Shown in pieces: positions 2,673 to 18,579 of a DNA stretch of 18,579 nt; position 1 is the stretch's first letter; each line of letters begins with the position of its first letter. Origin of the DNA: Candidatus Iainarchaeum sp. Its GTDB lineage: Archaea > Iainarchaeota > Iainarchaeia > Iainarchaeales > 0-14-0-20-30-16. The stretch spans positions 1-18,579 of the forward strand of contig CAIWXP010000114.1 in the NCBI GenBank assembly GCA_903916665.1, written 5' to 3'. Below the pieces are notes generated by a model. It was not told the DNA's origin and did not search any database. It saw only the letters and a list, made by a program, of their open reading frames with translations. Both the position numbers and the translations under genes were made by a program.

Positions 2673-3815
2673 GTGAATCCTATGGCATATAATCAAACAT
2701 TTGTAAACGACACAAGTAAAAATAAAGTGGAAATTCAAGAACACTTGGACATGACTAAAGTCGATGCAATAGTTTCAAGAATAAAATCAAAATATGAAAA
2801 ACAGGGATTATTGGAAGATCCAGATTCAAAAAATTTGAGAGAATTGAGAGGGTTAATTGCAGAAGGTAAAAGAGCAAAAATAGAAATATTGAAACCATCT
2901 GATTTGAGCTATAGTTTTAATCCTTTAGTAAGAAAAGTTGGTGAAATTTATACTAAATTTAGCAAGTTCTTTGATTTCATTTCAAAGAAAATATTAAGTG
3001 CTATGCCAGAATCAAAACTATTGGCCTATGAACTATATTCTGCAGATATGAATTATAGTGTTTCACAATATTTGGCAATATCTTCTGTGATATTATTTTT
3101 TGTAAATACAATATTAATAATCGCATTTTTTGCAATATTTTTATTATTGGGCATTACATTTTTGGTTCCCTTAGCATTAACTATAATGTTATTTATTGCA
3201 AGTATATTTGTTGTTTTAAAATACCCTACGTCAGTTGCAAAAAAAAGAGCAAAGGAAATAGATACACAATTACCTTTTGCATTAAGACACATGGCAACAT
3301 TATTAAGAGCGGGTGTTGATTTATATAAAGTAATTAGAACAGTGGCCGTTGCAGACTACGGTGTTTTATCTCAAGAATTAACAAAAACAGTAATGGAAGT
3401 TGAGGAAGGGCAGGATATTAAAGATTCTTTAAGGGCTTTGGCATTAAGAACTAAGTCCTTTGCTTTAAAAAACGCAGTAAGTCATTTATTACGAGCATTG
3501 AAAAGCGGGGGAAATTTATCTGACGTAATGAATACAATTGCCGACGATGTATCCTACCAAATATTATCAGAAATAGAATCTTTTTCTGGTAAAATGAATT
3601 TTTTGGGAGTAATTTATATTTTTGCAGGAATTGTTGTTCCTGTAATGACTGCAATATTATCAGGAATAAGAAATGCACCATTAGGATCTGGGACTTCTTT
3701 CCTAGATGCTTTGCCATTAACTCCAGTAGTAATAATGTTATTATTTTTAGTTGCATTTCCAATTATGTTATTTGCAATAACAATGTATGTAAAAAGTATA
3801 AGACCAAATTTGTAG
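2673..3815 (+). CDS. Pilus platform membrane protein 1, single T2SSF domain (TadB/TadC/EpdJ-K-like)
   Basis: 380-aa ORF starting directly after the ATPase stop (TAA-GTG; alternative ATG at 2682). It has a cytoplasmic N-terminus, paired TM helices, the T2SSF-like segment 'LPFALRHMATLLRAGVDLYKVIRTVA' and C-terminal TM helices. Confidence 0.8.
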   Translation: MNPMAYNQTFVNDTSKNKVEIQEHLDMTKVDAIVSRIKSKYEKQGLLEDPDSKNLRELRGLIAEGKRAKIEILKPSDLSYSFNPLVRKVGEIYTKFSKFFDFISKKILSAMPESKLLAYELYSADMNYSVSQYLAISSVILFFVNTILIIAFFAIFLLLGITFLVPLALTIMLFIASIFVVLKYPTSVAKKRAKEIDTQLPFALRHMATLLRAGVDLYKVIRTVAVADYGVLSQELTKTVMEVEEGQDIKDSLRALALRTKSFALKNAVSHLLRALKSGGNLSDVMNTIADDVSYQILSEIESFSGKMNFLGVIYIFAGIVVPVMTAILSGIRNAPLGSGTSFLDALPLTPVVIMLLFLVAFPIMLFAITMYVKSIRPNL

Positions 3816-3822
3816 TGAGACT

Positions 3823-4731
3823 ATGTTTAATATAAAATTAATGATGGAAAAATATCAAACAATAATGTATAAAAATAAAATCAAGGTAAATATTAATCTT
3901 TGGTTTTTAATTGCAGGAATTTCTGGAATAGTCTTGATGATTTTGACCATGATTTTTGCAAACATAGTTTTAGGTTTGGTTGCTTTATTTTTTGTGGTAG
4001 ATTTATTTATTGGTTATCCATTAATTTTAGATGAGAAAAGAATTTCAGAAATAGAAAAGAATTTTCCAAATGCTTTAAGAGAAATTGCCTATTTATTAAA
4101 AACAGGTGGCACCTACGAATATGCTATAAGAGAATTAACTAGCTATGATTATGGCCCATTAAATGATGAATTAGAAAATGTTTTATTAAGATTAGAACAG
4201 GGATATAATTTTGAAGATTCATTAAATATAATTTCTGAAAATGTAGAATCAAATATTGTTAGAAAAACAATTGCTATTGTTATTGATTCTATTAAATCTG
4301 GTGCATCGTTGTCTGATATTTTAGAAGATCTTTCAGAAGATATGAGAAAATTATATAAATTAGAAATTGATAGAAAATCAAAAACAATAATGCAAATGTT
4401 ATTTATTTTCGCAGCGGGTGTATTAATTGCTCCCGCAATCTATGGATTAGTAGTAACATTAATTGATTTCCTAATGAGTGTAACCATAGGTGCAGGTTTA
4501 ACTTCTGCTGCAGTAGCTGCTCAAGCAGTTGGTGTTAGAGATCTATTAGAAAACGTTCTATTAATTTTTATTTTTATACAATCTTTGTCTTCGGCAGTAA
4601 TTGTAATATTAATGAGAGAAAGAAGCTATGCAAAAATTTTGTTATATTTGCCAATATTTTTGTTGTGTGCCTACACTGCGTTCTATGTTGTTATGTTTTT
4701 ATCGAAATATTTATTAATTGGAATGATGTAA
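3823..4731 (+). CDS. Pilus platform membrane protein 2, single T2SSF domain (TadB/TadC/EpdJ-K-like)
   Basis: 302-aa ORF with N-terminal TM pair, T2SSF-like 'FPNALREIAYLLKTGGTYEYAIREL' and C-terminal TM helices. It is a paralogue of the preceding gene, so the platform is split into two genes. Confidence 0.8.
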   Translation: MFNIKLMMEKYQTIMYKNKIKVNINLWFLIAGISGIVLMILTMIFANIVLGLVALFFVVDLFIGYPLILDEKRISEIEKNFPNALREIAYLLKTGGTYEYAIRELTSYDYGPLNDELENVLLRLEQGYNFEDSLNIISENVESNIVRKTIAIVIDSIKSGASLSDILEDLSEDMRKLYKLEIDRKSKTIMQMLFIFAAGVLIAPAIYGLVVTLIDFLMSVTIGAGLTSAAVAAQAVGVRDLLENVLLIFIFIQSLSSAVIVILMRERSYAKILLYLPIFLLCAYTAFYVVMFLSKYLLIGMM

Positions 4732-4746
4732 TTTTAGTGATAGTTT

Positions 4747-4926
4747 ATGAATAAAATTAAGTTTTTAAAGGAAAATAAAGCACAAACGGCTTTAGAAGTT
4801 ATTTTAATTGTTGGTGGCGTATTAGTATTGGTAACTGTCATAGGTTATTATTTAAAAACAAAGGTAGTAGAAACACAGGATACTAATAAACTTATTGACA
4901 TTATGAATAAAACAGCTGGAAAATAA
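4747..4926 (+). CDS. Mini-pilin 1, class III signal peptide protein (59 aa; not in ORF track)
   Basis: Hand translation: MNKIKFLKENKAQTALEVILIVGGVLVLVTVIGYYLKTKVVETQDTNKLIDIMNKTAGK. It has a basic leader, a predicted cut 'KA|QTALE' with Glu at +5, and a hydrophobic helix. A partial SD 'GTGAT' lies upstream. The 5' end is near-identical to the next gene. Confidence 0.8.
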   Translation: MNKIKFLKENKAQTALEVILIVGGVLVLVTVIGYYLKTKVVETQDTNKLIDIMNKTAGK

Positions 4927-4955
4927 TATTTATAAATTATATTGGGGGAATTAAA

Positions 4956-5165
4956 ATGGGAAGAGAAGCAATAAAATTTTTAAAAGAAAATAAAGCACAG
5001 GGTGCTTTGGAATATCTATTAATTATAGGTGGTGCGATAGTATTAGCTGCAATAGTAATTGCAATTGTTGTTAATGTTGCTAGTAAACCAAAAACAGATA
5101 TAAACACATATTCGAATCAATATGATCAAACATTAGCAGATGCAAATAAGAATTTACAAAAATAA
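4956..5165 (+). CDS. Mini-pilin 2, class III signal peptide protein (69 aa)
   Basis: 'MGREAIKFLKENKA|QGALEYLLIIGGAIVLAAIVIAIVV' shows a class III signal with Gln+1, Glu+5 and Tyr+6. A G-rich SD ('TGGGGGA') lies upstream. Confidence 0.85.
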   Translation: MGREAIKFLKENKAQGALEYLLIIGGAIVLAAIVIAIVVNVASKPKTDINTYSNQYDQTLADANKNLQK

Positions 5166-5177
5166 ATAGGTGCATTT

Positions 5178-5357
5178 ATGTTTTTAAAAGAAAAGAGGGC
5201 TCAGGTATCGTTTGAGTACCTCTTAACTATTGTTTTTGCAATTGTTTTGGTTGCAATAGTTACTGTGTTTGCTTTACAAATGCAGGGTATTGGAAACATC
5301 GCTAAAGATAGAATAGCAGAAACAAAAATAAAATATTTTGAGAAAATTTTTGGCTGA
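5178..5357 (+). CDS. Mini-pilin 3, class III signal peptide protein (59 aa; not in ORF track)
   Basis: Hand translation: MFLKEKRAQVSFEYLLTIVFAIVLVAIVTVFALQMQGIGNIAKDRIAETKIKYFEKIFG. Predicted cut 'RA|QVSFEY'. SD 'AGGTG' lies 6 nt upstream. Confidence 0.8.
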   Translation: MFLKEKRAQVSFEYLLTIVFAIVLVAIVTVFALQMQGIGNIAKDRIAETKIKYFEKIFG

Positions 5358-5362
5358 ATGAT

Positions 5363-6484
5363 ATGTATGAATATTTGGTTATTAATGCAGCAATTGTTTT
5401 TATTGCATTGTTTTATTCAACAATAACTGATATTCGTTCAAGAGAAGTTTCAAACTATATTTCTTTAGGATTATTAGCCTATGGAACAGTTGCGAATTCA
5501 ATTTATTATCTTATAACAAAAAGTTATTTGTCAACTATTTATTTTTTAATTTTTGTTGCATTAACTTTTTTAATTTGCTATTTATTTTGGAAGCTAGGAA
5601 TATTTGCCGGTGGTGATGCTAAATTATATTCTGGAATTGCCGCAACCATTCCCATATTAAATATTTCATTGATTAATAACGTGAGTTCACAGATTCCATT
5701 TGTATTGTCTTTATTTTTATTGTCAATTATTTTAATGTTGCCCATAGCTGTTGGAAAATTAATTATTGGTTATTTTAAGAGTGTTAAAATAAAAGAGTTT
5801 GTTTTAAAAAATATTAAAGAAAGTGCATTAAAGTTTATTTTAAATATAACCTACGTTGTAGCATTGTATTTTATTTTTTCATTTTTTCATTATCCTCTCT
5901 GGATGTTTTTAATAGTTTCAATAATATTGGGTTTTATACCCAAAATAATTAGATATCCTATATCAGTAATATTATTTGTTGTTTCTTTATTGTTAAATCC
6001 ATTAAATACATTTTATATTATGATATTTTCAATAATTGCAGCATTTATTTTAGGTTTAATAATAAAAATGTTTGTTTTGTCTAGATCTGGAGTATTAAAT
6101 TACTCTAAAAATGTTTCAGAATTAGTTGATGGTGACCTATTGGCACATCCTTTAATAAAAAACAATAAAGGGAAATATGAAGATTTAAAATTTAGTTTTT
6201 GGAATGAATTTAAGTTAGCCTTTAAAAAAAGCTTAAAAGAGGGCCCAAATGCTCTAAATTCTATGTTAAATAGGAGAAAGGATTTATATTCCAAAATTGT
6301 TATTAATAATAACTTGGCTTGCGGTTTAACTTTGGACGAGGTTAAATTATTAAAAATGCATTATATTGATGATAAAATAGAGTTAAAAGAAACTACTCCT
6401 TTGGTACCGAGTATTTTTTTAGCCTATGTTTTGATGATTTGTTTTGGTGATGTGGTATGGCTTCTGTTTTCTTTAATAAAATAA
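5363..6484 (+). CDS. Prepilin/preflagellin-type aspartyl signal peptidase (A24 family; EppA/FlaK/PibD-like) with long C-terminal extension
   Basis: 373-aa polytopic membrane ORF. The first catalytic Asp context is 'ITDIRSREVSN' and the second is the GxGD-type 'FAGGDAKLY'. It sits between pilin genes. About 280 aa follow the second Asp, including a K-rich soluble-looking stretch. Confidence 0.85.
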   Translation: MYEYLVINAAIVFIALFYSTITDIRSREVSNYISLGLLAYGTVANSIYYLITKSYLSTIYFLIFVALTFLICYLFWKLGIFAGGDAKLYSGIAATIPILNISLINNVSSQIPFVLSLFLLSIILMLPIAVGKLIIGYFKSVKIKEFVLKNIKESALKFILNITYVVALYFIFSFFHYPLWMFLIVSIILGFIPKIIRYPISVILFVVSLLLNPLNTFYIMIFSIIAAFILGLIIKMFVLSRSGVLNYSKNVSELVDGDLLAHPLIKNNKGKYEDLKFSFWNEFKLAFKKSLKEGPNALNSMLNRRKDLYSKIVINNNLACGLTLDEVKLLKMHYIDDKIELKETTPLVPSIFLAYVLMICFGDVVWLLFSLIK

Positions 6485-7038
6485 ATGACAAAGGACAACT
6501 AAGTGTTGAGTTTATTTTAATTATTTTGGTAGTACTAATTTTGATAGAAGTTATTATATTGCCTTTAAGAGATTATTCTGAAGCAAGTATGAAAGATATA
6601 ACTAATATTAGTTACTTAGAATCAAATATGCAAAAACTTCAACAAGCCATTAGTGATTTAAACAGTTATAGTGAAGGCAAATTAGAAGTTAAATTGCATA
6701 TACCCGAAGATAGTAATTTTTACATTCATTCCTATAGTCTTTTGTACACTGATGTTTGGACCTATGTGTCCTATAATCAAATAATTTATTCTAATGATAT
6801 AAATGTTTCTGATTGCAATAATAATATTTGTCAAAAAGATATTTTTATTGGTGCTCTAGGGATTAATGCGCCCGATACTTTTACTTCTAATAAAAGAACC
6901 TGTACAGGAAGTGGGCATTATATAAATTGTGTTTTAATACCGATTAGTGATAGTGGATATTTTTTTAATGGTCCATTAGATCAAACAATAATTATGCAAA
7001 AATCATCAGATGGAAAAATTACTTTATACAGATCGTGA
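6457..7038 (+). CDS. Pilin-like protein A (class III signal, Gln+1 type)
   Basis: 193 aa; 'MASVFFNKINDKG|QLSVEFILIILVVLILI'. SD 'GGTGA' lies 6 nt upstream. It overlaps the peptidase 3' end by 28 nt. The globular part has Cys and N-x-S/T sequons. Confidence 0.7.
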   Translation: MASVFFNKINDKGQLSVEFILIILVVLILIEVIILPLRDYSEASMKDITNISYLESNMQKLQQAISDLNSYSEGKLEVKLHIPEDSNFYIHSYSLLYTDVWTYVSYNQIIYSNDINVSDCNNNICQKDIFIGALGINAPDTFTSNKRTCTGSGHYINCVLIPISDSGYFFNGPLDQTIIMQKSSDGKITLYRS

Positions 7039-7042
7039 TTTT

Positions 7043-7366
7043 ATGAATAAAGGACAAATATCAATAGATTTACTTTTAGCATTGGTTATGTTTTTAGTAA
7101 TGATTGGGTTTTTATTAAATTACACCAATGATTTTGTTTCTGTTTCTCAAGATTATCAAAGCAATGTTTCTGGTTTTAATAGTTATATTAAAAGCTATGA
7201 TTTTATGAAAAGTGTGAATTTTTCGCCAAATACTCATTATTTAATAAATTTTAATCAGGATATAAATTATGATAATAATGCATTAATTTTTGATTTAAAT
7301 AATAATTATACCATAGACCTAAATTATATTAATTGTGATAGTTTAAATAGGACGTGTCAAAAATGA
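7043..7366 (+). CDS. Pilin-like protein B (class III signal, Gln+1 type)
   Basis: The track ORF starts at 7010, but the internal ATG at 7043 follows the upstream stop (7036-7038) and gives 'MNKG|QISIDLLLALVMFLVMIGFLL'. 'GTGAT' lies just upstream. Confidence 0.65.
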   Translation: MNKGQISIDLLLALVMFLVMIGFLLNYTNDFVSVSQDYQSNVSGFNSYIKSYDFMKSVNFSPNTHYLINFNQDINYDNNALIFDLNNNYTIDLNYINCDSLNRTCQK

Positions 7367-7890
7367 ATAGAAAAGGATTTTTTATTTCTATTGATTTAAT
7401 AATAACTTTGGCAACCGTTATTTTATTATTTGGGTTATTAGGTGCCTATTTACATGAAGGCATTCAAGATTATGCAAACTATAAAGAAGATATTAAAATG
7501 CAATCAACAATGAACATTGTTATGAATAGATTGGCAGATTCAAATTATTCCTGTGATTTATATTCTAACAATGATGAAATAATTAAAAAAGTAAGTTTTT
7601 GTATACCATTTGGTAACAATATTAAAGGATTATTTTCTGACTTAGATTATAATATAAGTATGGGTTGTTATAGTTGTTTTAAAGGCGCTTGTTCTTTTGC
7701 GGGTTGTTTTGGTTATGCGCCTTTAGATCCATCAAAATCTAGTAATTATATTGCGAAAGATATTTATTTAATGGCGCCTAAAGCAAAGGGTTTGGCAAAA
7801 TATAATTATTTAAATTGTTTTTTAAATAAATGTACGGATATTTCTGGAAACGATATAAATACATTAGTGAGAGTATATGTTTGGAAATAG
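7363..7890 (+). CDS. Pilin-like protein C (class III-like signal, Cys-rich)
   Basis: The preferred start is the ATG at 7363 (ATGA overlap with the upstream stop), giving 'MNRKG|FFISIDLIITLATVILLFGLL'. There are about 10 Cys in the C-terminal part. Confidence 0.6.
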   Translation: MNRKGFFISIDLIITLATVILLFGLLGAYLHEGIQDYANYKEDIKMQSTMNIVMNRLADSNYSCDLYSNNDEIIKKVSFCIPFGNNIKGLFSDLDYNISMGCYSCFKGACSFAGCFGYAPLDPSKSSNYIAKDIYLMAPKAKGLAKYNYLNCFLNKCTDISGNDINTLVRVYVWK

Positions 7891-8167
7891 TAAAGGTTTA
7901 ATATTTATTTTGGATTTGATTGCGGCAGTAGCCGTAATAACTATTGCGTTGATATTTATTGTGCAGGTTAAACCTGAAAATACTTTGAAACAACAAAATG
8001 ATTTAGTATATTTAGAAGCACAAAATTATTTGATGCACGTACCTTTAACAAATACCTACGATATAAACAAAAATTACATCTGCAGAAATTATACTAGGCT
8101 ATATATTGCAACTTTGAATACTATGGTTAGTGAAGATAAAAACATATGTACAAATGTGATCGGGTGA
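7877..8167 (+). CDS. Pilin-like protein D (class III-like signal)
   Basis: 96 aa; 'MFGNSKG|LIFILDLIAAVAVITIALIFIV'. It overlaps the upstream gene by 14 nt. Confidence 0.55.
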   Translation: MFGNSKGLIFILDLIAAVAVITIALIFIVQVKPENTLKQQNDLVYLEAQNYLMHVPLTNTYDINKNYICRNYTRLYIATLNTMVSEDKNICTNVIG

Positions 8168-8171
8168 AATT

Positions 8172-8729
8172 ATGAAAGGATTTTTTAGTGTGGCATTGAT
8201 AATATTTGTTCTTTTCATAACTATGTTTTATGTAACTATAAAAGAAACTTCAAAACCAATAATGTTTGACGACTCCCCTAGATTATTAGCATTAAAATCA
8301 GAAGAAGCATTTTTAACATTGGATCAAAATTTAACCTATAATTATATTGATTATAAATATTCTATTCCTTTTGATTGTAATACAAAAGGTACCAATAATT
8401 CTGATTTCTCACAATATTTGGTAACAAATTATTCTGGAACAAACATAAAAAAAGCCAATGATTATTGTACTGTAAAAGTAAGAAGTGGAAATTTTAGTAC
8501 AATAACATCAAATACTTTTGATGTGAACATATCTGCAAATATCAATTGTACATATGCTAAGGATTCTGATTTAAATTATAGCATGCAAATACAAACAGAT
8601 CTAAACTTTCATAAAAGATATCAATCCTATACTGATGGTGGGTTTTGTCATTTTATATTAACTGACTTAGATTCACAAACAGTCTATGTAGATAAAAATA
8701 ATCTAGTAGTAATAAATCTTTACCATTAA
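8172..8729 (+). CDS. Pilin-like protein E (very short class III-like leader)
   Basis: 185 aa; 'MKG|FFSVALIIFVLFITMFYV'. SD 'GGGTGA' lies upstream. I count seven N-x-S/T sequons by eye and four Cys. Confidence 0.55.
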   Translation: MKGFFSVALIIFVLFITMFYVTIKETSKPIMFDDSPRLLALKSEEAFLTLDQNLTYNYIDYKYSIPFDCNTKGTNNSDFSQYLVTNYSGTNIKKANDYCTVKVRSGNFSTITSNTFDVNISANINCTYAKDSDLNYSMQIQTDLNFHKRYQSYTDGGFCHFILTDLDSQTVYVDKNNLVVINLYH

Positions 8730-9709: not shown

Positions 9710-10250
9710 TTACATTTTGTCTTTCTGTTTGTGTTATTTGTAAATAATCTTTTTGTGCTTTTCCAAATAATTTTGCAAACAACATACCAGGGAATAAAGT
9801 AACTGTGTTGTTATATACTAAAATTGAATCATTAAAAAATTGTCTAGTATACGCAATTTTACTTTCTATATCACTTAATTCTTGTTGCAATTGAGCAAAG
9901 TTTTCATTAGCTTTTAATACAGGATAATTTTCGGCAATTGCGAAAATGCTTTTTAATGCACTTGATATTGCATCGCTTGCTTTAAATTTTGCATCTAAAC
10001 TTTTTGCACCAACCATTGCAGCTCTTGCATTTGCTAAGTTTTCAAAAATTCCTTTTTCATGTTTTGCATAACCTTTAACAGTTGCAACCAAGTTAGGAAT
10101 TAAATCACTTCTTTTTTTCAATTGAACATCAATTTGACTAAATGCGTTATCTATTCTATTACTCAATACAACAATTTTATTGTAATAATATATTAATAAA
10201 ACTACTATTACTGCAATAATTGCTATAATAAGCCAAATCCACCAGAACAT
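9696..10250 (-). CDS. lemA: LemA family membrane protein
   Basis: 184 aa with a single N-terminal TM, then 'NAFSQIDVQLKKRSDLIPNLVATVKGYAKHE...NARA', typical of LemA. A strong SD 'GGAGGT' lies 6 nt upstream of the ATG. Confidence 0.88.
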   Translation of the reverse strand: MFWWIWLIIAIIAVIVVLLIYYYNKIVVLSNRIDNAFSQIDVQLKKRSDLIPNLVATVKGYAKHEKGIFENLANARAAMVGAKSLDAKFKASDAISSALKSIFAIAENYPVLKANENFAQLQQELSDIESKIAYTRQFFNDSILVYNNTVTLFPGMLFAKLFGKAQKDYLQITQTERQNVKVEF

Positions 10251-10315
10251 TCTGATACCTCCACACGAAAATTAGATAATAATAATATAAATTAGATATT
10301 TAAAAGTTTTTCTAT

Positions 10316-10348
10316 AAAAATAAAAAAAGAAGGAGTATTTTACTCCTT
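10316..10348 (-). terminator. Hairpin + oligo-T terminator after the large surface-protein gene
   Basis: A perfect 8-bp stem (10330-10337 pairs with 10341-10348, 3-nt loop) overlaps the stop codon. On the minus strand it is followed by C-T7-A-T5. Confidence 0.6.
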
Positions 10349-13300
10349 AATACAAGCACCTGCTTTGTCCATTACATTAAATTCAGGAATATTATAACTA
10401 ACATTATCGCAGACATATCCTTGCGGGCATTCTTTTGTAATTGTTAAAACATTTTTATCACTACTACAATAGGCTTCTTTAATAGTGGTGTTTGAAACAC
10501 AACTATCATTTTGACCGTCCACAATTTGACCATAGCTATTTTTTTGATAGGCTACACTAGGCGTAAATATATCAATTGATCCGTCAATATCAATACAAGA
10601 TTCTATTTTTGGATTATCAATTTTTTGTTTACATGCTGCGCCCTCTTGCATTTTTCCAGAATCTGTTGTAAATAATAAATGATCTAAGCAAACAAAATTA
10701 TTTGGGCAACTCAAGCTGTGTTGTGCAGGACCTTGACTTGAACAAAATGCTTCATTTATTGAATTATCGGTAGCGCAGGAATCAGAAAATGATGCTGTGT
10801 CTCCAATAGAATTAGTTCCAATTGTTATACCAGGTGTAAGGGTAGGATCAACAGAATTAGTATCAGAATCAATACAAGTTATTTTGTTGGGGTCAGGTAC
10901 TTTACAACTAGCAGTATTGTATTCAACACCATTATAATCAATGGTATCATAGCCACATAATTTTCCAGTAGTTTCACAGTTTATTTCTGATTCTTTAATA
11001 TTATTGCTATTATTAATTTCGCAGGTTCTTTGTATAGCAATATTCCCGCTACAATAATTTACATAATTATTTATGTTTCCAAATATATCTGTAATACTGA
11101 CACCCCAATCCAATGCATTACAAATTATTTTATCATTTACTTGTGGTTTACAAGCACCATTATCACAGCCAAATCCGCTTGGGCAATCAAAAGTTTTATT
11201 TGTTAATTCCAAACCATCACAATATGCTTTAGCTATTGCTTTATCAGAACTACAATAATCATAGGAATAACTTTCTTCTCCAAAAGAATCTGTATATGTA
11301 CCTTGACTTTGTTTTAATAAATTATTTTCGTCAGGAGCATTACATTTTTTTAGAGCTGGATTACCTATTGCACAACTACCACTAGTATATTGTCCAAAAG
11401 GAGTATTTAGACTACTTTCTTTACATTCTTTTCCATACAATGTACAATTAATTTCTTTAGATTTTGCTTCATTATTGTCACAGTAATATTCATTTAAAGT
11501 GGTGTGTGTTGGGCAAGTGTCCACATTAGTCATTTCTTCTCCAAATATGTTTTTAGAATTAATATAACCAGGATTATCCATGTCTATTTTATTATCAGAT
11601 TCTTTACAATATATTTTATCTTTGGAAATTGTGCTTTGGCATTTTCCGTTGTTACACAATGTGCCTGGTGAACAAGTATAATCTTTTTGTTTAACTTCTT
11701 TATTTTCACAATAATATTCAATTAATGTATTATCATCAACACAATTGTCATTTGCAGAAATATTTTTTCCAAATTGATTTGTTGCAGTTACATATCCAAA
11801 ATTTTCATAGTCTAAACCTTTATCAGAATCACTACATTGCATTAAATCTGGATTTGGTATTTCACACTTTCCTCCAGATAAATCGGTTCCAGGAATTGGT
11901 TCATCAACACAACCCATATTTTGATCAAAACAAGAATAATCTTTTTCGCCATCACAGGTTTGTTCATGCAGTATTGTACCGTATTGATCACACCAATCAG
12001 TTAGTTTACTAGATTCAAATGTTTTTTCAATACCTAAAATTGAATAGGTTGTTTTGTAAACTACAAATCCAGGCATATTGATATCAAAACCCTTATCTGA
12101 ATCTACACAGGTTGGTTTTATATCGCTAGAAACACATTTTCCACCCATACAAATTTTTCCATCCTGTGAACAATCATAGTTATAGTTTTCATAGTAATCA
12201 TGTCCAATAAATAAATCACTTTGAACACATTTTTGTTCGACTAATGTAAAATCATCATTTGCACCGGTTGCATCTTTTAAGCAAACATCATTTACTGTAA
12301 TTTTTGCAGAACTATCAGAAGTAGAATAAACTACAGAACTCGCATTGTCAGTTTCTTTAACACTAGGATTTTTTGAATCATTGTCAAAACAACTAGTAAA
12401 ATCATCATTGGTTGGAACACATTTATTTTCAACACATTTTCCTGATTTGAATCCTTGTAATTGCCCCACAATTCTACAATCAACATTCCATTTTTGGCCT
12501 AAAGGATTTGCAAAGAAACCATTATCTAATTTATACTGCGGTCTTATACAATAATTTTCTGTTAATGTGATTCCATTATTTTGACAAAAATCACTTTCTG
12601 TCCAAACCAAATCATTAAATTTATAGGCTACTTTTCCAGCTTCCAAATAACCATTTAAAGGAGCAGTTTCATCACTATCAAAACACCAAACATCACATTT
12701 TTCTGTACTGTCCAAAGTATAATACTTTCCACTATATACATTAGAAGTTAAACTATTATTATTTTCATTGGATTCTTTTACTTCGTTATCTGTATCCAAT
12801 GTTATTTTCACAGGATATGTTTTATCTAAATCCATATTAAATCTCATTGTATTTAATTTTAAATCATCAGAATAGGTAACACATTTTCCTGCAGCTATGG
12901 TTCCGTTTTCTAAAGCATATCTTATTTTAATATTTTGATCATTTGACGAAACAATAAAATTAAATTCTCCGTTAAAATCGTCTTTCCCATTATTACAAAT
13001 ATCAAAATAAATTGAATTTATACAATCTTGACTTTTTGCTGTTGAATAAATTTTACCTACGTTTAAATCGATATTTTTTATTTTGTTTTCCATACATATT
13101 CCAAAATTACAAGTTTTGTTTAAAGGGCAATCAAAATCTTTGTAACCAATGACTTCATTCAGTATATTATTAAATATTGATTCGTTTAATTGTTCTTTTG
13201 TTAATAATAAATATAATTGATTATAATTTCCATATTGTTTTTTAACTGCTGCAATAACTGCATCTGCCTGTTGTGTTGTCAATCCTTTATTATACATTAT

Positions 13301-13834
13301 TTGTTTTATTTTGTCTACTATTACTAAATCTAGTTTTGCTTTAAAAAGATCATAACTCATGGAATTTGTTTTACAAAAAGAATTTTTATTTTTATTTAAA
13401 TCGCAGGTGTCGGAATAGGTATAACAACCTTTTAAACCTTCAAATTCATAGTATACTGATGTGTTTCCTTTGTTATATATGTCAGGACTAATTTCAGAAT
13501 CATAGCAACCAATAATAGAATTTGGTTTTTTTGCAGCTTCTGCTTTTTTACAACCTTCTAAATCAATATAATTATCAGTAAATATGTTAAATAAATTATA
13601 ATCTGGTTTTAATCTAATTAGATTATTACTTATTCTTCCAGAATTAATTAGTGTTGTATTTATTGCATTATTTTTTAATATATTTACATCTATTTGCTTA
13701 ATTGGCACTGGTTTAATTGGCATAACAAATAGTCCTGTGTTTGTTATTCCATTGTTATCAAAAACATATATGCTTGCAAAAAATAAAACAAAAACTAGAC
13801 TAATAATTAAAACAGTATAAATTTGATATCTCAT
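10340..13834 (-). CDS. Large secreted/anchored Cys-rich surface protein (CARDB-like domain + 9 six-Cys modules)
   Basis: The 1164-aa frame is uninterrupted in AT-rich DNA. It has an N-terminal hydrophobic signal/anchor 'MRYQIYTVLIISLVFVLFFASIYVF'. SD 'GAGGGA' and TATA 'TATATAAA' lie upstream, and a hairpin plus T-run lies at the 3' end. Confidence 0.85.
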   Translation of the reverse strand: MRYQIYTVLIISLVFVLFFASIYVFDNNGITNTGLFVMPIKPVPIKQIDVNILKNNAINTTLINSGRISNNLIRLKPDYNLFNIFTDNYIDLEGCKKAEAAKKPNSIIGCYDSEISPDIYNKGNTSVYYEFEGLKGCYTYSDTCDLNKNKNSFCKTNSMSYDLFKAKLDLVIVDKIKQIMYNKGLTTQQADAVIAAVKKQYGNYNQLYLLLTKEQLNESIFNNILNEVIGYKDFDCPLNKTCNFGICMENKIKNIDLNVGKIYSTAKSQDCINSIYFDICNNGKDDFNGEFNFIVSSNDQNIKIRYALENGTIAAGKCVTYSDDLKLNTMRFNMDLDKTYPVKITLDTDNEVKESNENNNSLTSNVYSGKYYTLDSTEKCDVWCFDSDETAPLNGYLEAGKVAYKFNDLVWTESDFCQNNGITLTENYCIRPQYKLDNGFFANPLGQKWNVDCRIVGQLQGFKSGKCVENKCVPTNDDFTSCFDNDSKNPSVKETDNASSVVYSTSDSSAKITVNDVCLKDATGANDDFTLVEQKCVQSDLFIGHDYYENYNYDCSQDGKICMGGKCVSSDIKPTCVDSDKGFDINMPGFVVYKTTYSILGIEKTFESSKLTDWCDQYGTILHEQTCDGEKDYSCFDQNMGCVDEPIPGTDLSGGKCEIPNPDLMQCSDSDKGLDYENFGYVTATNQFGKNISANDNCVDDNTLIEYYCENKEVKQKDYTCSPGTLCNNGKCQSTISKDKIYCKESDNKIDMDNPGYINSKNIFGEEMTNVDTCPTHTTLNEYYCDNNEAKSKEINCTLYGKECKESSLNTPFGQYTSGSCAIGNPALKKCNAPDENNLLKQSQGTYTDSFGEESYSYDYCSSDKAIAKAYCDGLELTNKTFDCPSGFGCDNGACKPQVNDKIICNALDWGVSITDIFGNINNYVNYCSGNIAIQRTCEINNSNNIKESEINCETTGKLCGYDTIDYNGVEYNTASCKVPDPNKITCIDSDTNSVDPTLTPGITIGTNSIGDTASFSDSCATDNSINEAFCSSQGPAQHSLSCPNNFVCLDHLLFTTDSGKMQEGAACKQKIDNPKIESCIDIDGSIDIFTPSVAYQKNSYGQIVDGQNDSCVSNTTIKEAYCSSDKNVLTITKECPQGYVCDNVSYNIPEFNVMDKAGACIKE
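10343..12685 (-). repeat. Nine tandem protein-level repeats (~68-90 aa each) of a six-cysteine module
   Basis: Modules start at Cys 384, 482, 576, 667, 743, 831, 905, 987 and 1080. Shared pattern: C-x-[DE]-[SND]-D-x(1,2)-[GK]...G...D-x-C...[LI]-x-E-x-[YF]-C...C...C...G-x-C. An example is 'CSDSDKGLDYENFGYVTATNQFGKNISANDNCVDDNTLIEYYCENKEVKQKDYTCSPGTLCNNGKC'. The repeats are divergent at DNA level. Confidence 0.8.
12755..13081 (-). other. CARDB-like (cell adhesion related domain) segment of the large protein, aa ~252-360
   Basis: '...FDICNNGKDDFNGEFNFIVS...IAAGKCVTY...YPVKITLDTDNEVKESNENNN' matches the CARDB pattern as remembered (V.N.G..., aG, ...vDpdN.v.EsnE.NN). No search was run. Confidence 0.55.
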
Positions 13835-13875
13835 ATTATCCCTCTTTCATTACTTAATTATATTAGAGAAAAAGA

Positions 13876-13884
13876 TTTATATAC
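13876..13884 (-). promoter_or_regulatory. TATA box candidate for the large surface-protein gene
   Basis: The minus strand reads 'GTATATAAA', 42-50 nt upstream of the ATG at 13834. That leaves room for a short leader containing the SD 'GAGGGA'. Confidence 0.45.
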
Positions 13885-13899
13885 TGTTTGATATGAGAT

Positions 13900-13915
13900 A
13901 ATAAAAATAAAAAAA
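13900..13915 (-). terminator. Oligo-T terminator downstream of rpl40e
   Basis: The minus strand reads T7-A-T5-A-TT about 17 nt after the L40e stop. This is an archaeal-type oligo-T termination signal, positioned before the next promoter. Confidence 0.5.
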
Positions 13916-13931
13916 GGGAAGAAAGTAGATA

Positions 13932-14090
13932 TTACTTCTTCTTTATTTTGTGCTTAATTCTGAATTCTGCTCTGTCGCATTCTCTACATTTCAAAGGTTT
14001 GCCCTTTGGACTTCTTTGTTTTGCACCACAGTTCATGCAGATCCATACATCTTTAATTATTCTATCGTTTGCTTCTTTAAATACAACCAT
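13932..14090 (-). CDS. rpl40e: Ribosomal protein L40e (52 aa; not in ORF track)
   Basis: Hand translation of the minus strand: MVVFKEANDRIIKDVWICMNCGAKQRSPKGKPLKCRECDRAEFRIKHKIKKK. The CxxC...CxxC zinc ribbon and basic tail match archaeal L40e. SD 'GGTGAT' lies 4 nt upstream of the ATG. Confidence 0.8.
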   Translation of the reverse strand: MVVFKEANDRIIKDVWICMNCGAKQRSPKGKPLKCRECDRAEFRIKHKIKKK

Positions 14091-14111
14091 TAATATCACC
14101 AAGTATTTGAG

Positions 14112-14184
14112 TGCGCCTACCCGGATTCGAACCGGGGATATTCGCCTTGTAAGGGCGACATCTTAACCGCTGGATCATAGGCGC
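14112..14184 (-). tRNA. tRNA-Val (anticodon UAC)
   Basis: Minus-strand 73-nt cloverleaf. The acceptor GCGCCTA pairs with TAGGCGC. The D arm is ATCC/AGCGGTTAA/GAT (one mismatch). The anticodon stem TCGCC/GGCGA carries loop CTTACAA. The T arm is CCCGG-TTCGAAT-CCGGG and the discriminator is A. No CCA is encoded and there is no intron. Confidence 0.88.
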
Positions 14185-14299: not shown

Positions 14300-14830
14300 C
14301 TAAACTATGCCGTAAACTATTGCAAATAAGGCCAAAACATAGAATGCCCTTAAAATCTCGAATTTATCAAAAGCACTTACCAATTGGGCAATTATAATAA
14401 TTGGCAAATATAGTATTAATATTAGTATAATAATTGCAATTTTACTACCAAAGTTCTTTTTCCATTTCTTTTTTATGTGATCTTCAATGGTATTAAAAAT
14501 ATTTTTTGTGTCTTGTTTACTAGGTATGGAGTTATATAATACACAAATTCCTAAATAATTTAATACGAAAAACCAAAGCAAATTAGACCCAAATGCTAGT
14601 TTTGCAAAATAAAACAATATTGCTCCAATAACAAAACCTAAATAAAAAGGCGCCAAAGCTATTAATGACATTCTTATTGGACCTGTTTGATCATGCTTTA
14701 CATAGGATTCTCGCAAACCAAAACTTAGTTTACTTACCTTGACTCGTAATACCAAGCAGCTAATTAAATGTGAAAATTCATGCACTATGACTCCTGGATA
14801 AAATAAAAATCTAAACATATTTTCACTCAT
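14300..14830 (-). CDS. Small polytopic membrane protein with HExxH (minimal M50/S2P-like or 'putative zincin' membrane protease)
   Basis: 176 aa. HExxH 'VHEFSHL' (nt 14768-14782) sits in the first hydrophobic segment. A second motif 'N-S-I-P-S-K-Q-D' (aa 100-107) resembles the site-2-protease NxxPxxxxDG motif. There are 4-5 predicted TM helices. An alternative start at 14818 (M5) is preceded by 'GAGTGA'. Confidence 0.6.
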   Translation of the reverse strand: MSENMFRFLFYPGVIVHEFSHLISCLVLRVKVSKLSFGLRESYVKHDQTGPIRMSLIALAPFYLGFVIGAILFYFAKLAFGSNLLWFFVLNYLGICVLYNSIPSKQDTKNIFNTIEDHIKKKWKKNFGSKIAIIILILILYLPIIIIAQLVSAFDKFEILRAFYVLALFAIVYGIV

Positions 14831-16378: not shown

Positions 16379-18579
16379 GTGTTTTTGTATAAACATAAGT
16401 TAAGAGAAAAAGATATTAAAAAGATTCCCTTTTTTGTTGTATTATTTTCTCTTATGACGTTAGTTTTGTATTTTTCTGGTTGTATATCGTTTTGTTCTTT
16501 AGATTCAAGCAAAGATAAAGAATGTATATCCTATACTGATGCAGTATCTGTTTGTGAAGATATTAGTAAACCAATACCTAATTATCCTATTTGTAGTGAT
16601 TTTTCAAAATCAAAGGGTTTTGATAGTCTATTTCAAAATGATTGTGAAAAGTTATTCGATGATAAAATATCCCCTGAATTACAATTTGATAATCTAAGTT
16701 TAAATACAGAACAATTATCAAACCAATTAAGACAACAAGTAATTAATTCTTGGAAATCTAGTGATAAGATTTCCTACGGTTATTATTTAATAAATAAAGA
16801 TTGTGATTCTTTTTTAACTAGCAATTTTTCTAATTATAAATATACAATAAAAAAAGAAGTAAGTAATTTAGATGCCTATAATAAAAATACTATTTTTTTA
16901 ATATTGAGTAGTATTTATTCAACAAGAAAAGATTTAATGGATAATAATATTGAATTATTGCAAGATACTTTGATATATAATGACTATATTGAATTAAATA
17001 ATATTATGAATGAATTTCAAAAATCTTTTGGAAAAGATATAGAAGTAAAACAGTCATTAATAACAAATACAATTTCATTTTATACAAAATATTATTCCAA
17101 TAATAAATCAAATATAGAATTTTCTAATGCACTATCAACATTAAGTTCAAACAATCAAGAAAATTCTCAAATATCTAGTTTTATTGGCTGGTCAGTTGCT
17201 TTAGGAGGTGTGATAGGGTTGGGAATAATTAATCCGGCTTCTGCTTTGGTTACCTATATGGTTAATGGTTTTAATTTGTCTGAAGATTTATCCTCAAAAG
17301 TATCTCAAGTTATAGATAATGCGTCCGAGAAAACAAATCTTAGTGAGTGGGAAAAATTAAATATTTTGAAGGAAATGTTAATAGATTATGAATCTGCTCA
17401 CGGAAAATATAGCTATGGAGATAAGGCATTGTTTGAATTGTTTAAAAATATGGATATTCATATATCTGATTTAAAGAAAAATAACTTAAAAATGGCCGAT
17501 CAATTAACTTCAAAAATTTTGGCTTTAGAAAATGAATTAAATAACAATATTATTGAGAAACAATCCTATGATATATTGTATTCTAAATATAATATTGTTG
17601 AATCACCATTAGATTTAAAACAAAAATTAGAAAATATAAAAAATGATGTAACTGCACTGGCCAAATTAAATTATGGTGAAACACATTATTATTTATTATT
17701 ATTTAATTCCGAATTTGATTCGTTAAAATTACAAACAGATAATTATTTTTCATCAGATTATAAATCATTAGTATCTCTATGTGCTTCAGATATTTTAACC
17801 TTAAAAGGTAAAATTATTGATTTGCCAGAATCTCAGGATAAAACAGTAGTACAAAATTATATTAATTTGTTTTTTGATTCCAAAGAGGATACAAAGAAGT
17901 TAAACTATTGCGCAAAGATATTAACTTTAATTACCAATAAACAAGATTATTCTTGTTTGTCATCATTTTCAAATTTGTCTTATAATTTAAACCTAAATAT
18001 GGATTTATCAAAATATACCGAATCAGAATGTTTGCAAGAAATAGATCATTATATAATAGATTCTGAGGACTCAGAAATATATCAAACAATTCAATCACTA
18101 TATTCAAAATTAAACTCTCAAATGTCCATTTTAAAAAATTTACACAATTCAAGCAACTGTATTTCCAATTCTGATTTTTTTGGATTTAGCTCAAAGGCAA
18201 ATAATTTATATTATGCCTCAAAATATACAAATAATAATACGTTGTCAGCAATAATCGATACAAACATATTTAAGTTAAATTTAGAGTTATCTAATTTAAT
18301 TGATAATTTGAATTTAACAATTTCTAAAACACTTAGTTGTTATTTTAAGGATAATTTTGAAATAAATAAAAATAACAAACAAATAATATTTAATAATCCT
18401 TTTGGAAATTTTATAAATGATTTTGATTTGAATATAAACAACTATGGCATTACAGATGTTAATAAATCAGATTGTTTAAATGGCTTTAATATATCAAAGG
18501 ATAAAATAGGTCTAAATTTCAAATGTATTTCCATACAAATGATTTATAGTATTAATTTTAAGAATCTAACTCCTAAAAC
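16379..18579 (+). CDS. Large secreted/lipoprotein-like protein of unknown function, 3'-truncated by the window end (not in ORF track)
   Basis: I translated every codon by hand. There is no stop from the TAA at 16376-16378 to the window end (733 codons). Candidate starts are GTG 16379, TTG 16385 and ATG 16454. From GTG the N-terminus is 'FLYKHKLREKDIKKIPFFVVLFSLMTLVLYFSGC', a basic n-region plus hydrophobic core plus lipobox-like 'FSGC'. The protein is N/K/S-rich with scattered Cys, many N-x-S/T sequons and one internal hydrophobic segment 'FIGWSVALGGVIGLGIINPASALV'. Confidence 0.8.
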   Translation, partial: MFLYKHKLREKDIKKIPFFVVLFSLMTLVLYFSGCISFCSLDSSKDKECISYTDAVSVCEDISKPIPNYPICSDFSKSKGFDSLFQNDCEKLFDDKISPELQFDNLSLNTEQLSNQLRQQVINSWKSSDKISYGYYLINKDCDSFLTSNFSNYKYTIKKEVSNLDAYNKNTIFLILSSIYSTRKDLMDNNIELLQDTLIYNDYIELNNIMNEFQKSFGKDIEVKQSLITNTISFYTKYYSNNKSNIEFSNALSTLSSNNQENSQISSFIGWSVALGGVIGLGIINPASALVTYMVNGFNLSEDLSSKVSQVIDNASEKTNLSEWEKLNILKEMLIDYESAHGKYSYGDKALFELFKNMDIHISDLKKNNLKMADQLTSKILALENELNNNIIEKQSYDILYSKYNIVESPLDLKQKLENIKNDVTALAKLNYGETHYYLLLFNSEFDSLKLQTDNYFSSDYKSLVSLCASDILTLKGKIIDLPESQDKTVVQNYINLFFDSKEDTKKLNYCAKILTLITNKQDYSCLSSFSNLSYNLNLNMDLSKYTESECLQEIDHYIIDSEDSEIYQTIQSLYSKLNSQMSILKNLHNSSNCISNSDFFGFSSKANNLYYASKYTNNNTLSAIIDTNIFKLNLELSNLIDNLNLTISKTLSCYFKDNFEINKNNKQIIFNNPFGNFINDFDLNINNYGITDVNKSDCLNGFNISKDKIGLNFKCISIQMIYSINFKNLTPK

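Follow-up and report, generated by a model that had tools for sequence, protein, structure and literature searches.

The nine six-cysteine modules encoded by a single minus-strand open reading frame (ORF) of the window, the whole 18,579-nucleotide stretch of DNA that we analysed (Table 1), belong to a large, unnamed six-cysteine family, for which an exhaustive profile search returned at least 1587 representative clusters (50% identity) at E≤1e-3, 448 at E≤1e-10 and 48 at E≤1e-30. Among full-length relatives, the best one found was the homologue P0005, at 27% identity.

Table 1. Features of the ORF carrying the six-cysteine array (nucleotide positions are those of the window; aa, amino acid residues).
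Feature	aa	Nucleotides	Strand	Basis or remark
Whole ORF	1164 in total	10340..13834	minus	
MRYQ then hydrophobic stretch (IYTVLIISLVFVLFFASIYVF)	1-26	13757..13834	minus	sequence
Probable tenth module, split by insertion	110-247	13094..13507	minus	weak half-matches
CARDB (cell adhesion related domain found in bacteria)	256-363	12746..13069	minus	Pfam PF07705
Module 1	384-481	12392..12685	minus	external profile 15.9 bits
Module 2	482-575	12110..12391	minus	external profile 13.7 bits, iE 4e-6
Module 3	576-666	11837..12109	minus	C5-C6 hairpin long, 14 residues
Module 4	667-742	11609..11836	minus	external profile 72.0 bits
Module 5	743-830	11345..11608	minus	C5-C6 hairpin long, 16 residues
Module 6	831-904	11123..11344	minus	degenerate acidic tetrad (Ala at 3, Lys at 40)
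Module 7	905-986	10877..11122	minus	degenerate acidic tetrad (A3, N30, Q40)
Module 8	987-1079	10598..10876	minus	C5-C6 hairpin long, 18 residues
Module 9	1080-1164	10343..10597	minus	C5-C6 hairpin long, 18 residues

A sequence-only reading had placed nine modules at residues 384, 482, 576, 667, 743, 831, 905, 987 and 1080 and the array at nucleotides 10343-12685, and both placements hold: residues 384-1164 map exactly to nucleotides 12685-10343, and an external profile, built from 99 modules of other organisms without any window sequence, recovered 9/9 modules at those starts (10.1-72.0 bits, iE 5e-5 to 3e-24). Cut at these starts, the array yields segments of 98, 94, 91, 76, 88, 74, 82, 93 and 85 residues with exactly six cysteines each, so that the 54 patterned cysteines counted earlier are all present, out of 66 in the ORF. 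The whole protein scored 256.9 bits (E 5e-82) against the external profile, and 500 shuffles of residues 384-1164 scored at most -4.9 bits. Leave-one-out HMMs gave 17.7-58.3 bits for modules 3-9 (shuffles, 1000 each, at most 14.3 bits), 11.6 bits for module 2 (shuffles at most 10.0) and 7.6 bits for module 1, the last within the shuffle range. On these leave-one-out and external-profile scores relative to shuffles the periodicity is not due to chance, and it persisted in profile self-analysis as well as with the external profile.

Among the ordered landmarks that had been proposed for the modules, the six cysteine columns, D5, D-x-C2, [LIV]-x-E-x-x-C3 and G-x-C6 stand, but only modules 3 and 4 show C-x-[DE]-S-D-x-G-x-D, the start motif in its strict form; [DE]-x-D is found in 7/9 modules, and modules 6 and 7 carry Ala at the first acidic position of the motif. 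Module 4 is the most canonical copy. Module 1 is a divergent subtype with a C3-C4 loop of 23 residues, the spacing C4-x13-C5-x4-C6 and an extra cysteine (Cys380) just upstream, and its C5 was misplaced in the MAFFT alignment; it aligns with the first module of P0005 with a score of 110 (its best paralogue scores 82) and is orthologous to that module. Module 2 is also divergent, its C1-C2 and C3-C4 loops being long, while module 7 combines a short C1-C2 segment with a long C5-C6 hairpin of 16 residues (external profile 10.1 bits, iE 5e-5; leave-one-out 17.7 bits). Module 9 closes the protein, which ends three residues past its C6. The C5-C6 gap is exactly 4 residues across 5-95% of the family and 14-18 residues in five window modules, and the window protein, with these long C5-C6 hairpins in five modules, is an unusual variant in the family.

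Identity among the nine modules is only 17-30%, and the DNA shows no tandem repetition with the period of the modules, the only trace being a 60-nt stretch that modules 4 and 5 share at 75% identity, in keeping with the earlier statement that the DNA had diverged too far for a visible repeat. A recent tandem expansion is rejected on both counts. Eight of the nine modules are closer to a sister within their own protein than to any module of the nearest homologues, and the gene is missing from the syntenic site of the close relative L049, where the flanking proteins are 78-82% identical; the array is therefore lineage-specific, not anciently fixed. The description of an old, selectively maintained array thus stands with respect to age at the DNA level but not with respect to ancient fixation.

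The ORF reads, from its N-terminus, as a hydrophobic anchor or signal, the probable split module, CARDB and the nine modules, and a C-terminal anchor is absent. Residues 1-26 are a signal peptide or signal anchor of Sec type and do not correspond to a pilin signal of class III. Within residues 110-247 the cysteines follow the layout C110-YDSE ... SDT-C144-x9-C154, an 81-residue insertion, then C236-PLNKT-C242-NFGI-C247, with spacing that agrees with the family medians. Against the external profile, residues 110-167 matched profile positions 1-50 (7.4 bits, iE 4e-4) and residues 212-249 matched positions 48-67 (6.6 bits, iE 7e-4); this weak evidence points to a probable tenth module copy. The CARDB assignment lies above the gathering score (25.0 bits, cutoff 22.7, E 2.3e-5), and the architecture of CARDB, divergent first module and array is common only to the window protein and two homologues, P0005 and P0010.

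Matches in the exhaustive profile search bear 3-19 modules apiece, often 5-19. Of the 1081 module instances counted in the top 150 proteins, 971 are full modules, and all six cysteines are present in 861 of these; an N-terminal hydrophobic stretch occurs in 135/150 proteins. Carriers include Micrarchaeota, Bilamarchaeum, Anstonellales, Woesearchaeota, Iainarchaeota and other DPANN lineages, some Methanosarcinales metagenome-assembled genomes (MAGs) and CPR bacteria; carriers were also found in genomes with a degenerate DNA pattern (C-T-D-[ST]-D-G-G ... E-Y-Y-C). The same module is found, as arrays of 9-17 copies, in the DPANN hypothetical proteins A0A5E4LRB4 (Ca. Bilamarchaeum dharawalense), MBI5158676.1 (Micrarchaeota) and MEM3373085.1 (Anstonellales), with the consensus C-x-D-S-D-G-G...D-x-C...L-x-E-Y-Y-C...C-P-x-G-x-x-C-x-x-G-x-C; in contrast to these proteins, the window protein lacks a close orthologue. 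The family profile spans 68 positions with median Cys-to-Cys gaps of 29, 10, 11, 5 and 4 residues and the start consensus C-x-D(82%)-[ST]-D(92%)-x-G(83%)-x-[DN](75%). Partner domains in the family (CARDB, Big_13, PKD, Kazal, Somatomedin_B, Peptidase_M11, Kre9_KNH and T4SS_pilin) are consistently extracellular.

The suggestion that the module may be undescribed holds across Pfam, NCBIfam, PDB and BFVD. The module profile had no match in Pfam-A or NCBIfam even at E≤10, the family profile gave 0 matches to PDB sequences at E≤10, and Foldseek with the module 4 model found nothing significant in PDB and no match at E≤1e-3 in BFVD. With the whole protein as query, a word-index search of 5.8 billion proteins returned no homologue beyond itself and a comparison with GTDB genomes found no related locus; motif and keyword searching of the literature found no paper describing the module. 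Two candidates were discarded: a match among PDB sequences to the tick P2X receptor head domain (5f1c, E=0.12) disappeared with a better profile and was judged to be chance, and the 'cysteine-rich repeats' of a 2026 preprint on Neocallimastix are a different repeat. The domain may already stand in InterPro beyond Pfam/NCBIfam, CDD, AFDB clusters or ECOD.

The AlphaFold2 model of module 4 (pLDDT 97.6, pTM 0.82) has strands at positions 15-19, 25-29, 37-44, 47-54, 59-62 and 65-68, and the module is accordingly modelled as three β-hairpins; the model of the divergent module 1 (9 sequences) reached a pLDDT of 74.8 and gave no Foldseek matches. The six cysteines are conserved at 94-100% over 971 family modules, and where they are lost they go in pairs: joint loss was seen 14 times, in 10 proteins, for C4 and C6 (with F, I, L, V or Y in place of C6), twice for C1 and C3 and once for C2 and C5, all counts that are not phylogenetically independent. 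These pairs partition all six cysteines consistently. A C4-C6 disulfide is strongly supported by this pattern, and C1-C3 and C2-C5 disulfides are those we infer from two and one co-losses, respectively. The three disulfides per module postulated from the sequence are in this way supported indirectly, as they are by the N-terminal signal or anchor and by the even cysteine counts of all pilin-like proteins in the window.

Four acidic positions are conserved to a similar extent (D/E at D3 93%, D5 96%, D30 100% and E40 96% of family modules), all four being kept in 877/914 modules. Their losses are correlated (D5-E40, odds ratio 55, p 8e-8; D3-E40, odds ratio 29, p 9e-6; G7-E40, p 6e-10; not phylogenetically independent), while G58 and G64 showed no association with E40 loss (p = 1). 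Conserved and co-lost positions of this kind fit a putative Ca2+ site, and they strengthen the calcium hypothesis, which had been offered as a weak one from the start motif. In the window the tetrad (D/E3, D5, D30, E40) is found in modules 1-5, 8 and 9 but not in modules 6 and 7, which means that a Ca2+ role, if there is one, does not extend to every module.

Comparison with named systems places the module beside, not within, known families. LDL-receptor class A (LA, PF00057) modules are likewise small and extracellular, have six cysteines in three disulfides and an acidic Ca2+ cage, and occur in tandem arrays. Their connectivity is 1-3, 2-5, 4-6, and the map suggested by co-loss in the present family would be the same, with strong support for 4-6 (14 co-losses) and weak support for 1-3 (2) and 2-5 (1). 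However, LA modules are about 40 residues long with little regular secondary structure, whereas the present module has about 65 residues and three predicted β-hairpins; the LA Ca2+ ligands lie in a C-terminal D-x-S-D-E, whereas the acidic residues here lie in the N-terminal loop and at positions 30 and 40; and the whole protein, single modules and 9 homologues had no PF00057 match at E≤10. We conclude that the six-cysteine module is an analogue of LA, not a member. DxDxDG-type loops (EF-hand-like; TSP3 PF02412 and bacterial TSP3 PF18884) resemble the D-x-D-x-G start, and a D/N two residues past it (75% of modules) and a distant Glu/Asp could finish a Ca2+ site, but the module lacks the third Asp before Gly (consensus D-[ST]-D-x-G), a cysteine directly upstream tethers its loop, and there was no profile match to PF02412 or PF18884. 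The CBM14/peritrophin-A domain of Blo t 12 (PDB 2mfk) is also β-rich, extracellular, about 65 residues long and six-cysteine; it was the top Foldseek match, yet not a significant one (E=1.3, TM 0.40, probability 0.38, 14% identity), and Pfam CBM_14 gave no match.

The reading that we favour, with moderate confidence, is that of a cell-surface protein from a DPANN archaeon with probable kinship to Iainarchaeota/Diapherotrites, a membrane-anchored stalk or adhesin stabilised by disulfides and probably by Ca2+. The N-terminal hydrophobic helix would serve export and probably anchoring of the protein, and outward from CARDB would run a chain of nine (probably ten) all-β modules of about 65 residues, each consisting of three stacked β-hairpins pinned by C1-C3, C2-C5 and C4-C6. 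In 7/9 copies a buried acidic cluster would most likely hold a Ca2+ ion; its residues come from the C-x-D-[ST]-D-x-G-x-[DN] loop, from the Asp that precedes C2 by two residues and from the Glu that precedes C3 by three. Joined head to tail by linkers of 6-12 residues, the modules should form a rigid, protease-resistant stalk, with adhesion or spacing where the small archaeon meets its host or substrate as the most likely role.

A possible, though rather unlikely, alternative is that the module is no passive stalk element but a ligand-binding unit, i.e. a Ca2+-dependent lectin or carbohydrate-binding module, in which the acidic cluster, together with the E-[YF]-[YF] aromatics, would make up a site for sugars or cations that recognises glycans of the host S-layer or cell wall. 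The acidic positions do match the cysteines in conservation, and single or paired modules beside Peptidase_M11 and T4SS_pilin in the family are typical of binding modules; but the Y-Y pair lies in a β-strand beside C3 and may represent mere core residues, and long homotypic arrays, here with as many as 19 copies, are what one would rather expect of spacers. That the best Foldseek neighbour is the six-cysteine chitin-binding domain 2mfk would suit a lectin, but a match at E=1.3 is not evidence.

We regard as improbable the proposal that the array acts as a decoy or variable surface antigen under rapid diversification, its function being to evade viruses or host defences through sequence variability and not to provide specific binding or structure. 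The empty word-index search and the 27% identity of the best full-length relative, the closeness of 8/9 modules to their sisters rather than to orthologous modules, the absence of the gene at the L049 syntenic site, its position next to a tRNA gene in the window, and the hypervariable long C5-C6 loops in five modules are all in its favour; however, the framework positions are strongly conserved, and such diversification is compatible with an adhesin, not exclusive of it. Coordination of Zn or Fe by the cysteines, making the module a metal-binding or redox domain, was rejected as highly improbable, because, notwithstanding six invariant cysteines within about 65 residues and a putative metal-binding MopE motif in one family member, cysteines are lost pairwise to hydrophobic residues with the other four kept, which is the pattern of disulfides and not of a Cys4 site, two Cys4 sites are impossible with six cysteines, conserved His residues are absent, and the proteins have both export signals and partner domains of extracellular kind.

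Attachment to other cells is the way of life of both DPANN archaea and CPR bacteria, and to our knowledge annotation is available for very few of their surface proteins; precisely these proteins are rich in the module. Returning to the anchored stalk or adhesin, a further and speculative extension, which we think unlikely as a whole, is that the module represents a new fold, a triple β-hairpin locked by Ca2+ and disulfides, within an attachment toolkit shared and exchanged by DPANN and CPR/Patescibacteria, with variable loops (the long C5-C6 fingers) setting host specificity. With a name and a solved structure, the family would provide annotation for thousands of 'hypothetical' proteins, a handle on host-contact proteins and a marker for following genes exchanged between archaea and bacteria of ultra-small size; a very confident model with no PDB neighbour makes the module a cheap and attractive structural target.

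The gene lies at a synteny break, adjoining the tRNA gene. L049 retains the whole type IV pilus operon through LemA, and the neighbourhood is not conserved among homologues; together with the absence of the gene from L049, this means that context gives no functional clue. The idea that the gene is functionally tied to the neighbouring type IV pilus operon was rejected, since the operon is intact in L049 without the gene and the P0010 neighbourhood contains no pilus genes. P0010 has a VKOR gene at a distance of 7 kb, which agrees with an extracellular setting of the family. The gene context of the window is archaeal, the nearest named relatives of its RFC being from Iainarchaeum/Diapherotrites (62-66% identity).

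Residues 384–1164 of the protein encoded by the minus-strand ORF 10340..13834 (1164 aa; here the Cys-module protein), corresponding to nt 12685–10343, had been described in a sequence-only reading as nine consecutive six-cysteine modules, and this was confirmed, with an exact match of the nucleotide coordinates. Cut at the nine proposed starts, the array yielded segments of 74–98 aa with six Cys apiece, which together hold 54 of the 66 Cys of the protein. In a MAFFT alignment of the nine, the C1, C2, C3, C4 and C6 columns were invariant and the C5 column was conserved in 8/9, the real spacing in module 1 being C4-x13-C5-x4-C6, as also in its orthologue in P0005, a homologous protein of another organism. 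Leave-one-out profiles scored modules 3–9 at 17.7–58.3 bits, whereas 1000 shuffles per module never reached more than 14.3 bits; module 2 was marginal (11.6 bits, with shuffles reaching at most 10.0) and module 1 (7.6 bits) did not separate from its shuffles. An external profile of 99 modules taken solely from other organisms recovered all nine at the proposed starts (10.1–72.0 bits, total 256.9 bits; independent E-values 5e-5 to 3e-24), while the highest score among 500 shuffled versions of aa 384–1164 was -4.9 bits. On the strength of these profiles and shuffle controls, the periodicity is not due to chance. The start motif originally proposed, C-x-[DE]-S-D-x-G-x-D, was present literally in modules 3 and 4 only, its core [DE]-x-D being retained in 7/9; likewise, the statement that no nucleotide repeat is visible held for tandem repeats at the module period but not for one 60-nt stretch of 75% identity between modules 4 and 5.

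The only Pfam match in the whole Cys-module protein was CARDB (aa 256–363) and NCBIfam gave none; scans of each of the nine modules alone returned noise only, and nine homologues scanned against both libraries showed CARDB and nothing else. In these two libraries the module has no named family. An exhaustive HMMER search of 1.84 billion cluster representatives with the nine-module profile as query matched 1587 proteins at E<=1e-3, of which 448 reached E<=1e-10 and 48 reached E<=1e-30, each with 3–19 matched stretches, and a refined profile identified 1081 module instances in the top 150 proteins. The family consensus reads C1-x-[DE]-[ST]-D-x-G-x-[DN]-x4-G ... D-x-C2-x5-[VLI]-x-E-[YF]-[YF]-C3 in its first half and C3-x11-C4-P-x-G-x(1,2)-C5-x-[ND]-G-x-C6 in its second, with median spacings between successive Cys of 29, 10, 11, 5 and 4 residues. 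Family proteins are ‘hypothetical’ or ‘uncharacterised’ in their source records, one being named solely for an N-terminal Kazal domain. The earlier interpretation was supported: the module is real, widespread and nameless in every library queried, and we classify it as a new family of a known kind, the disulfide-rich, probably Ca2+-binding extracellular repeat.

Named organisms with family proteins include Micrarchaeota, Ca. Bilamarchaeum, Anstonellales and Woesearchaeota. A degenerate DNA-pattern scan over GTDB species genomes gave 45 loci, with modules confirmed by profile in 43, covering DPANN archaea (Woese-, Micr-, Iain-, Undin-, Aenigmat- and Nanohalo-archaeota, Nanoarchaeia), five ‘uncultured Methanosarcinales’ MAGs and CPR bacteria (Saccharibacteria, Paceibacterota and one 308-kb Patescibacteria contig). 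The Patescibacteria module gene, which encodes a fusion protein (see table), has bacterial genes for RecA and undecaprenyl-diphosphate synthase on either side, so the occurrence of the family in both domains is real. Partner domains across the family (CARDB, Big_13, PKD, Kazal, Somatomedin_B, Peptidase_M11, Kre9_KNH and a MopE-type metal motif) are all extracellular. New domain families as such are not rare; this one is notable for its abundance where the tree of life is most poorly annotated, for its presence in both DPANN archaea and CPR bacteria, and for combining a near-perfect predicted structure that has no PDB neighbour with a sharply conserved, easily tested putative metal site.

Coordinates of features in the window and at related loci
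Feature	Location	Strand	Remarks
Type IV pilus-like operon, archaeal, complete	window 996-8729	+	
Pilin, 69 aa, class-III signal	window 4956-5165	+	within pilus-like operon
Five further pilin-like ORFs	window 6457-8729	+	even Cys numbers 4, 2, 8, 2, 4
Probable tenth module, split	window 13094-13507 (aa 110-247)	-	81-residue insertion between C3 and C4
tRNA-Val	window 14111-14184	-	follows 3.5-kb Cys-module gene
176-aa multi-pass membrane protein	window 14300-14830	-	HEFSH (HExxH-like) motif close to N-terminus
ORF >733 aa	window 16379-18579	+	continues past window end
Patescibacteria fusion protein	L033 4074-5726, DATDRP010000006.1	+	N-terminal T4SS_pilin domain and two module copies
VKOR (vitamin K epoxide reductase family) gene	L001 639-1034, GCA_964604645.1	+	~7 kb upstream of P0010

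The AlphaFold2 model of module 4, built from an alignment of 105 modules (pLDDT 97.6, pTM 0.82; all five models above 96), is all-beta, with three hairpins (strands 15–19/25–29, 37–44/47–54 and 59–62/65–68) and a short bridge at 2–3. Foldseek found nothing at E<=1e-3 in the PDB and nothing significant in BFVD, and the 105-sequence profile had no match among PDB sequences at E<=10; by comparison with the PDB and BFVD, the predicted structure may possibly represent a new fold. The top PDB match, a six-Cys chitin-binding domain (2mfk, E=1.3, TM 0.40), was not significant, and so neither is the resemblance to CBM14. In functional terms the six-Cys module is most nearly analogous to the LDL-receptor class A module, which likewise has six Cys and occurs in tandem, whose connectivity would be the same if the map suggested below is right, and whose acidic Ca2+ cage parallels the putative site here; membership of that family is nevertheless excluded by size, by secondary structure, by where the acidic residues lie and by profile searches.

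All six Cys were kept in 861 of 971 near-full modules. Where Cys were lost, C4 and C6 disappeared together in 14 cases from 10 different proteins (full sequences confirming replacement of C6 by F/I/L/V/Y), C1 and C3 in two and C2 and C5 in one; these pairs partition the six Cys consistently and suggest a 1-3, 2-5, 4-6 disulfide map, within which 4-6 alone is well supported. Metal-thiolate sites were rejected, since paired loss with hydrophobic replacement points to disulfides instead. The setting of the Cys-module protein is extracellular, as indicated by its hydrophobic N-terminal segment (also found in 135/150 family members), the even Cys numbers of the pilin-like proteins in the window (5/5) and the VKOR gene near P0010, a second homologue with CARDB and a module array. 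This VKOR could be a disulfide-forming oxidase for such proteins; the window itself contains no VKOR gene.

Acidic residues were equally conserved landmarks, D/E occupying profile positions D3, D5, D30 and E40 in 93%, 96%, 100% and 96% of modules, respectively, and all four in 877/914, with D/N at position 9 in 75%. Loss of E40 co-occurred with loss of D5 (odds ratio 55, p 8e-8), D3 (odds ratio 29, p 9e-6) and G7 (p 6e-10), counts that are not phylogenetically independent, and the C-terminal glycines G58 and G64 showed no association with E40. This conservation and the correlated rare losses point to a cation site, most plausibly for Ca2+, in which an N-terminal loop would be joined by two distant carboxylates. 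The start motif is similar to calcium loops of the DxDxDG and TSP3 types, although the module lacks their third Asp. The tetrad is present in window modules 1–5, 8 and 9 and jointly lost in modules 6 (A3, K40) and 7 (A3, N30, Q40).

A word-index search with the Cys-module protein found no homologue besides itself. The nearest full-length relatives found, P0005 (27% identity over 850 aa, E 2e-56) and P0010, share with it CARDB and, next in order, a divergent first module whose C3–C4 insert is long. Module 1 alone was closer to its orthologue than to its sisters; modules 2–9 resembled each other more than any P0005 or P0010 module, and the array has therefore undergone remodelling within the lineage. 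The C5–C6 spacing, exactly 4 residues across 5–95% of the family, was 14–18 in modules 3, 5, 7, 8 and 9, which is expected to extend the third hairpin into a finger. The linkers following long-hairpin modules 3, 5, 7 and 8 (for example aa 657–667, 821–831, 977–987 and 1068–1080) share the pattern C6-x-[IVG]-[PG]-[ND]-P-x-[LK]-x-x-C1, which is absent after modules 4 and 6, both of the short canonical type; this suggests two alternating module subtypes. Upstream, aa 110–247 probably contain a tenth module: there the external profile gave complementary half-hits (positions 1–50, 7.4 bits; 48–67, 6.6 bits), and the spacing of the Cys agrees with that of the family; with it counted, Cys numbers are even throughout (8 + 4 + 54). 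Its insertion is helical in appearance. Inter-module linkers are 6–12 residues long, several having an x-P-[ND]-P-x motif, and the protein lacks a C-terminal anchor; it is accordingly read as probably a rigid, cross-linked stalk or putative adhesin, anchored at its N-terminus.

The window (G+C ~28%) has an archaeal gene set, comprising an RFC small subunit, the type IV pilus-like operon (whose components include a T2SSE ATPase, a pair of T2SSF platform proteins and an A24 prepilin peptidase carrying the archaeal Arc_PepC domain), HtpX, LemA and a NUDIX protein. The closest named relatives of its RFC were from Candidatus Iainarchaeum/Diapherotrites (62–66% identity), with metagenomic relatives reaching 90%; the window accordingly comes from a DPANN archaeon. 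A related locus, L049 (JGI 3300033757), is collinear with the window without a break between RFC and LemA, the flanking proteins being ~78–82% identical, and synteny ends exactly at the Cys-module gene (window 10191-14184 vs L049 20112-20963): L049 lacks the gene and carries tRNA-Leu, tRNA-Gly and a methyltransferase at that position. The gene has the look of cargo that varies between lineages, at a site flanked by tRNA genes. The ORF running past the window end has a hydrophobic N-terminal segment with ‘FSGC’ at its end, and 15 Cys but no copy of the six-Cys module in its in-window part; it may encode another large exported protein. The 176-aa membrane protein, which had no Pfam match, may be an uncharacterised membrane metalloprotease.
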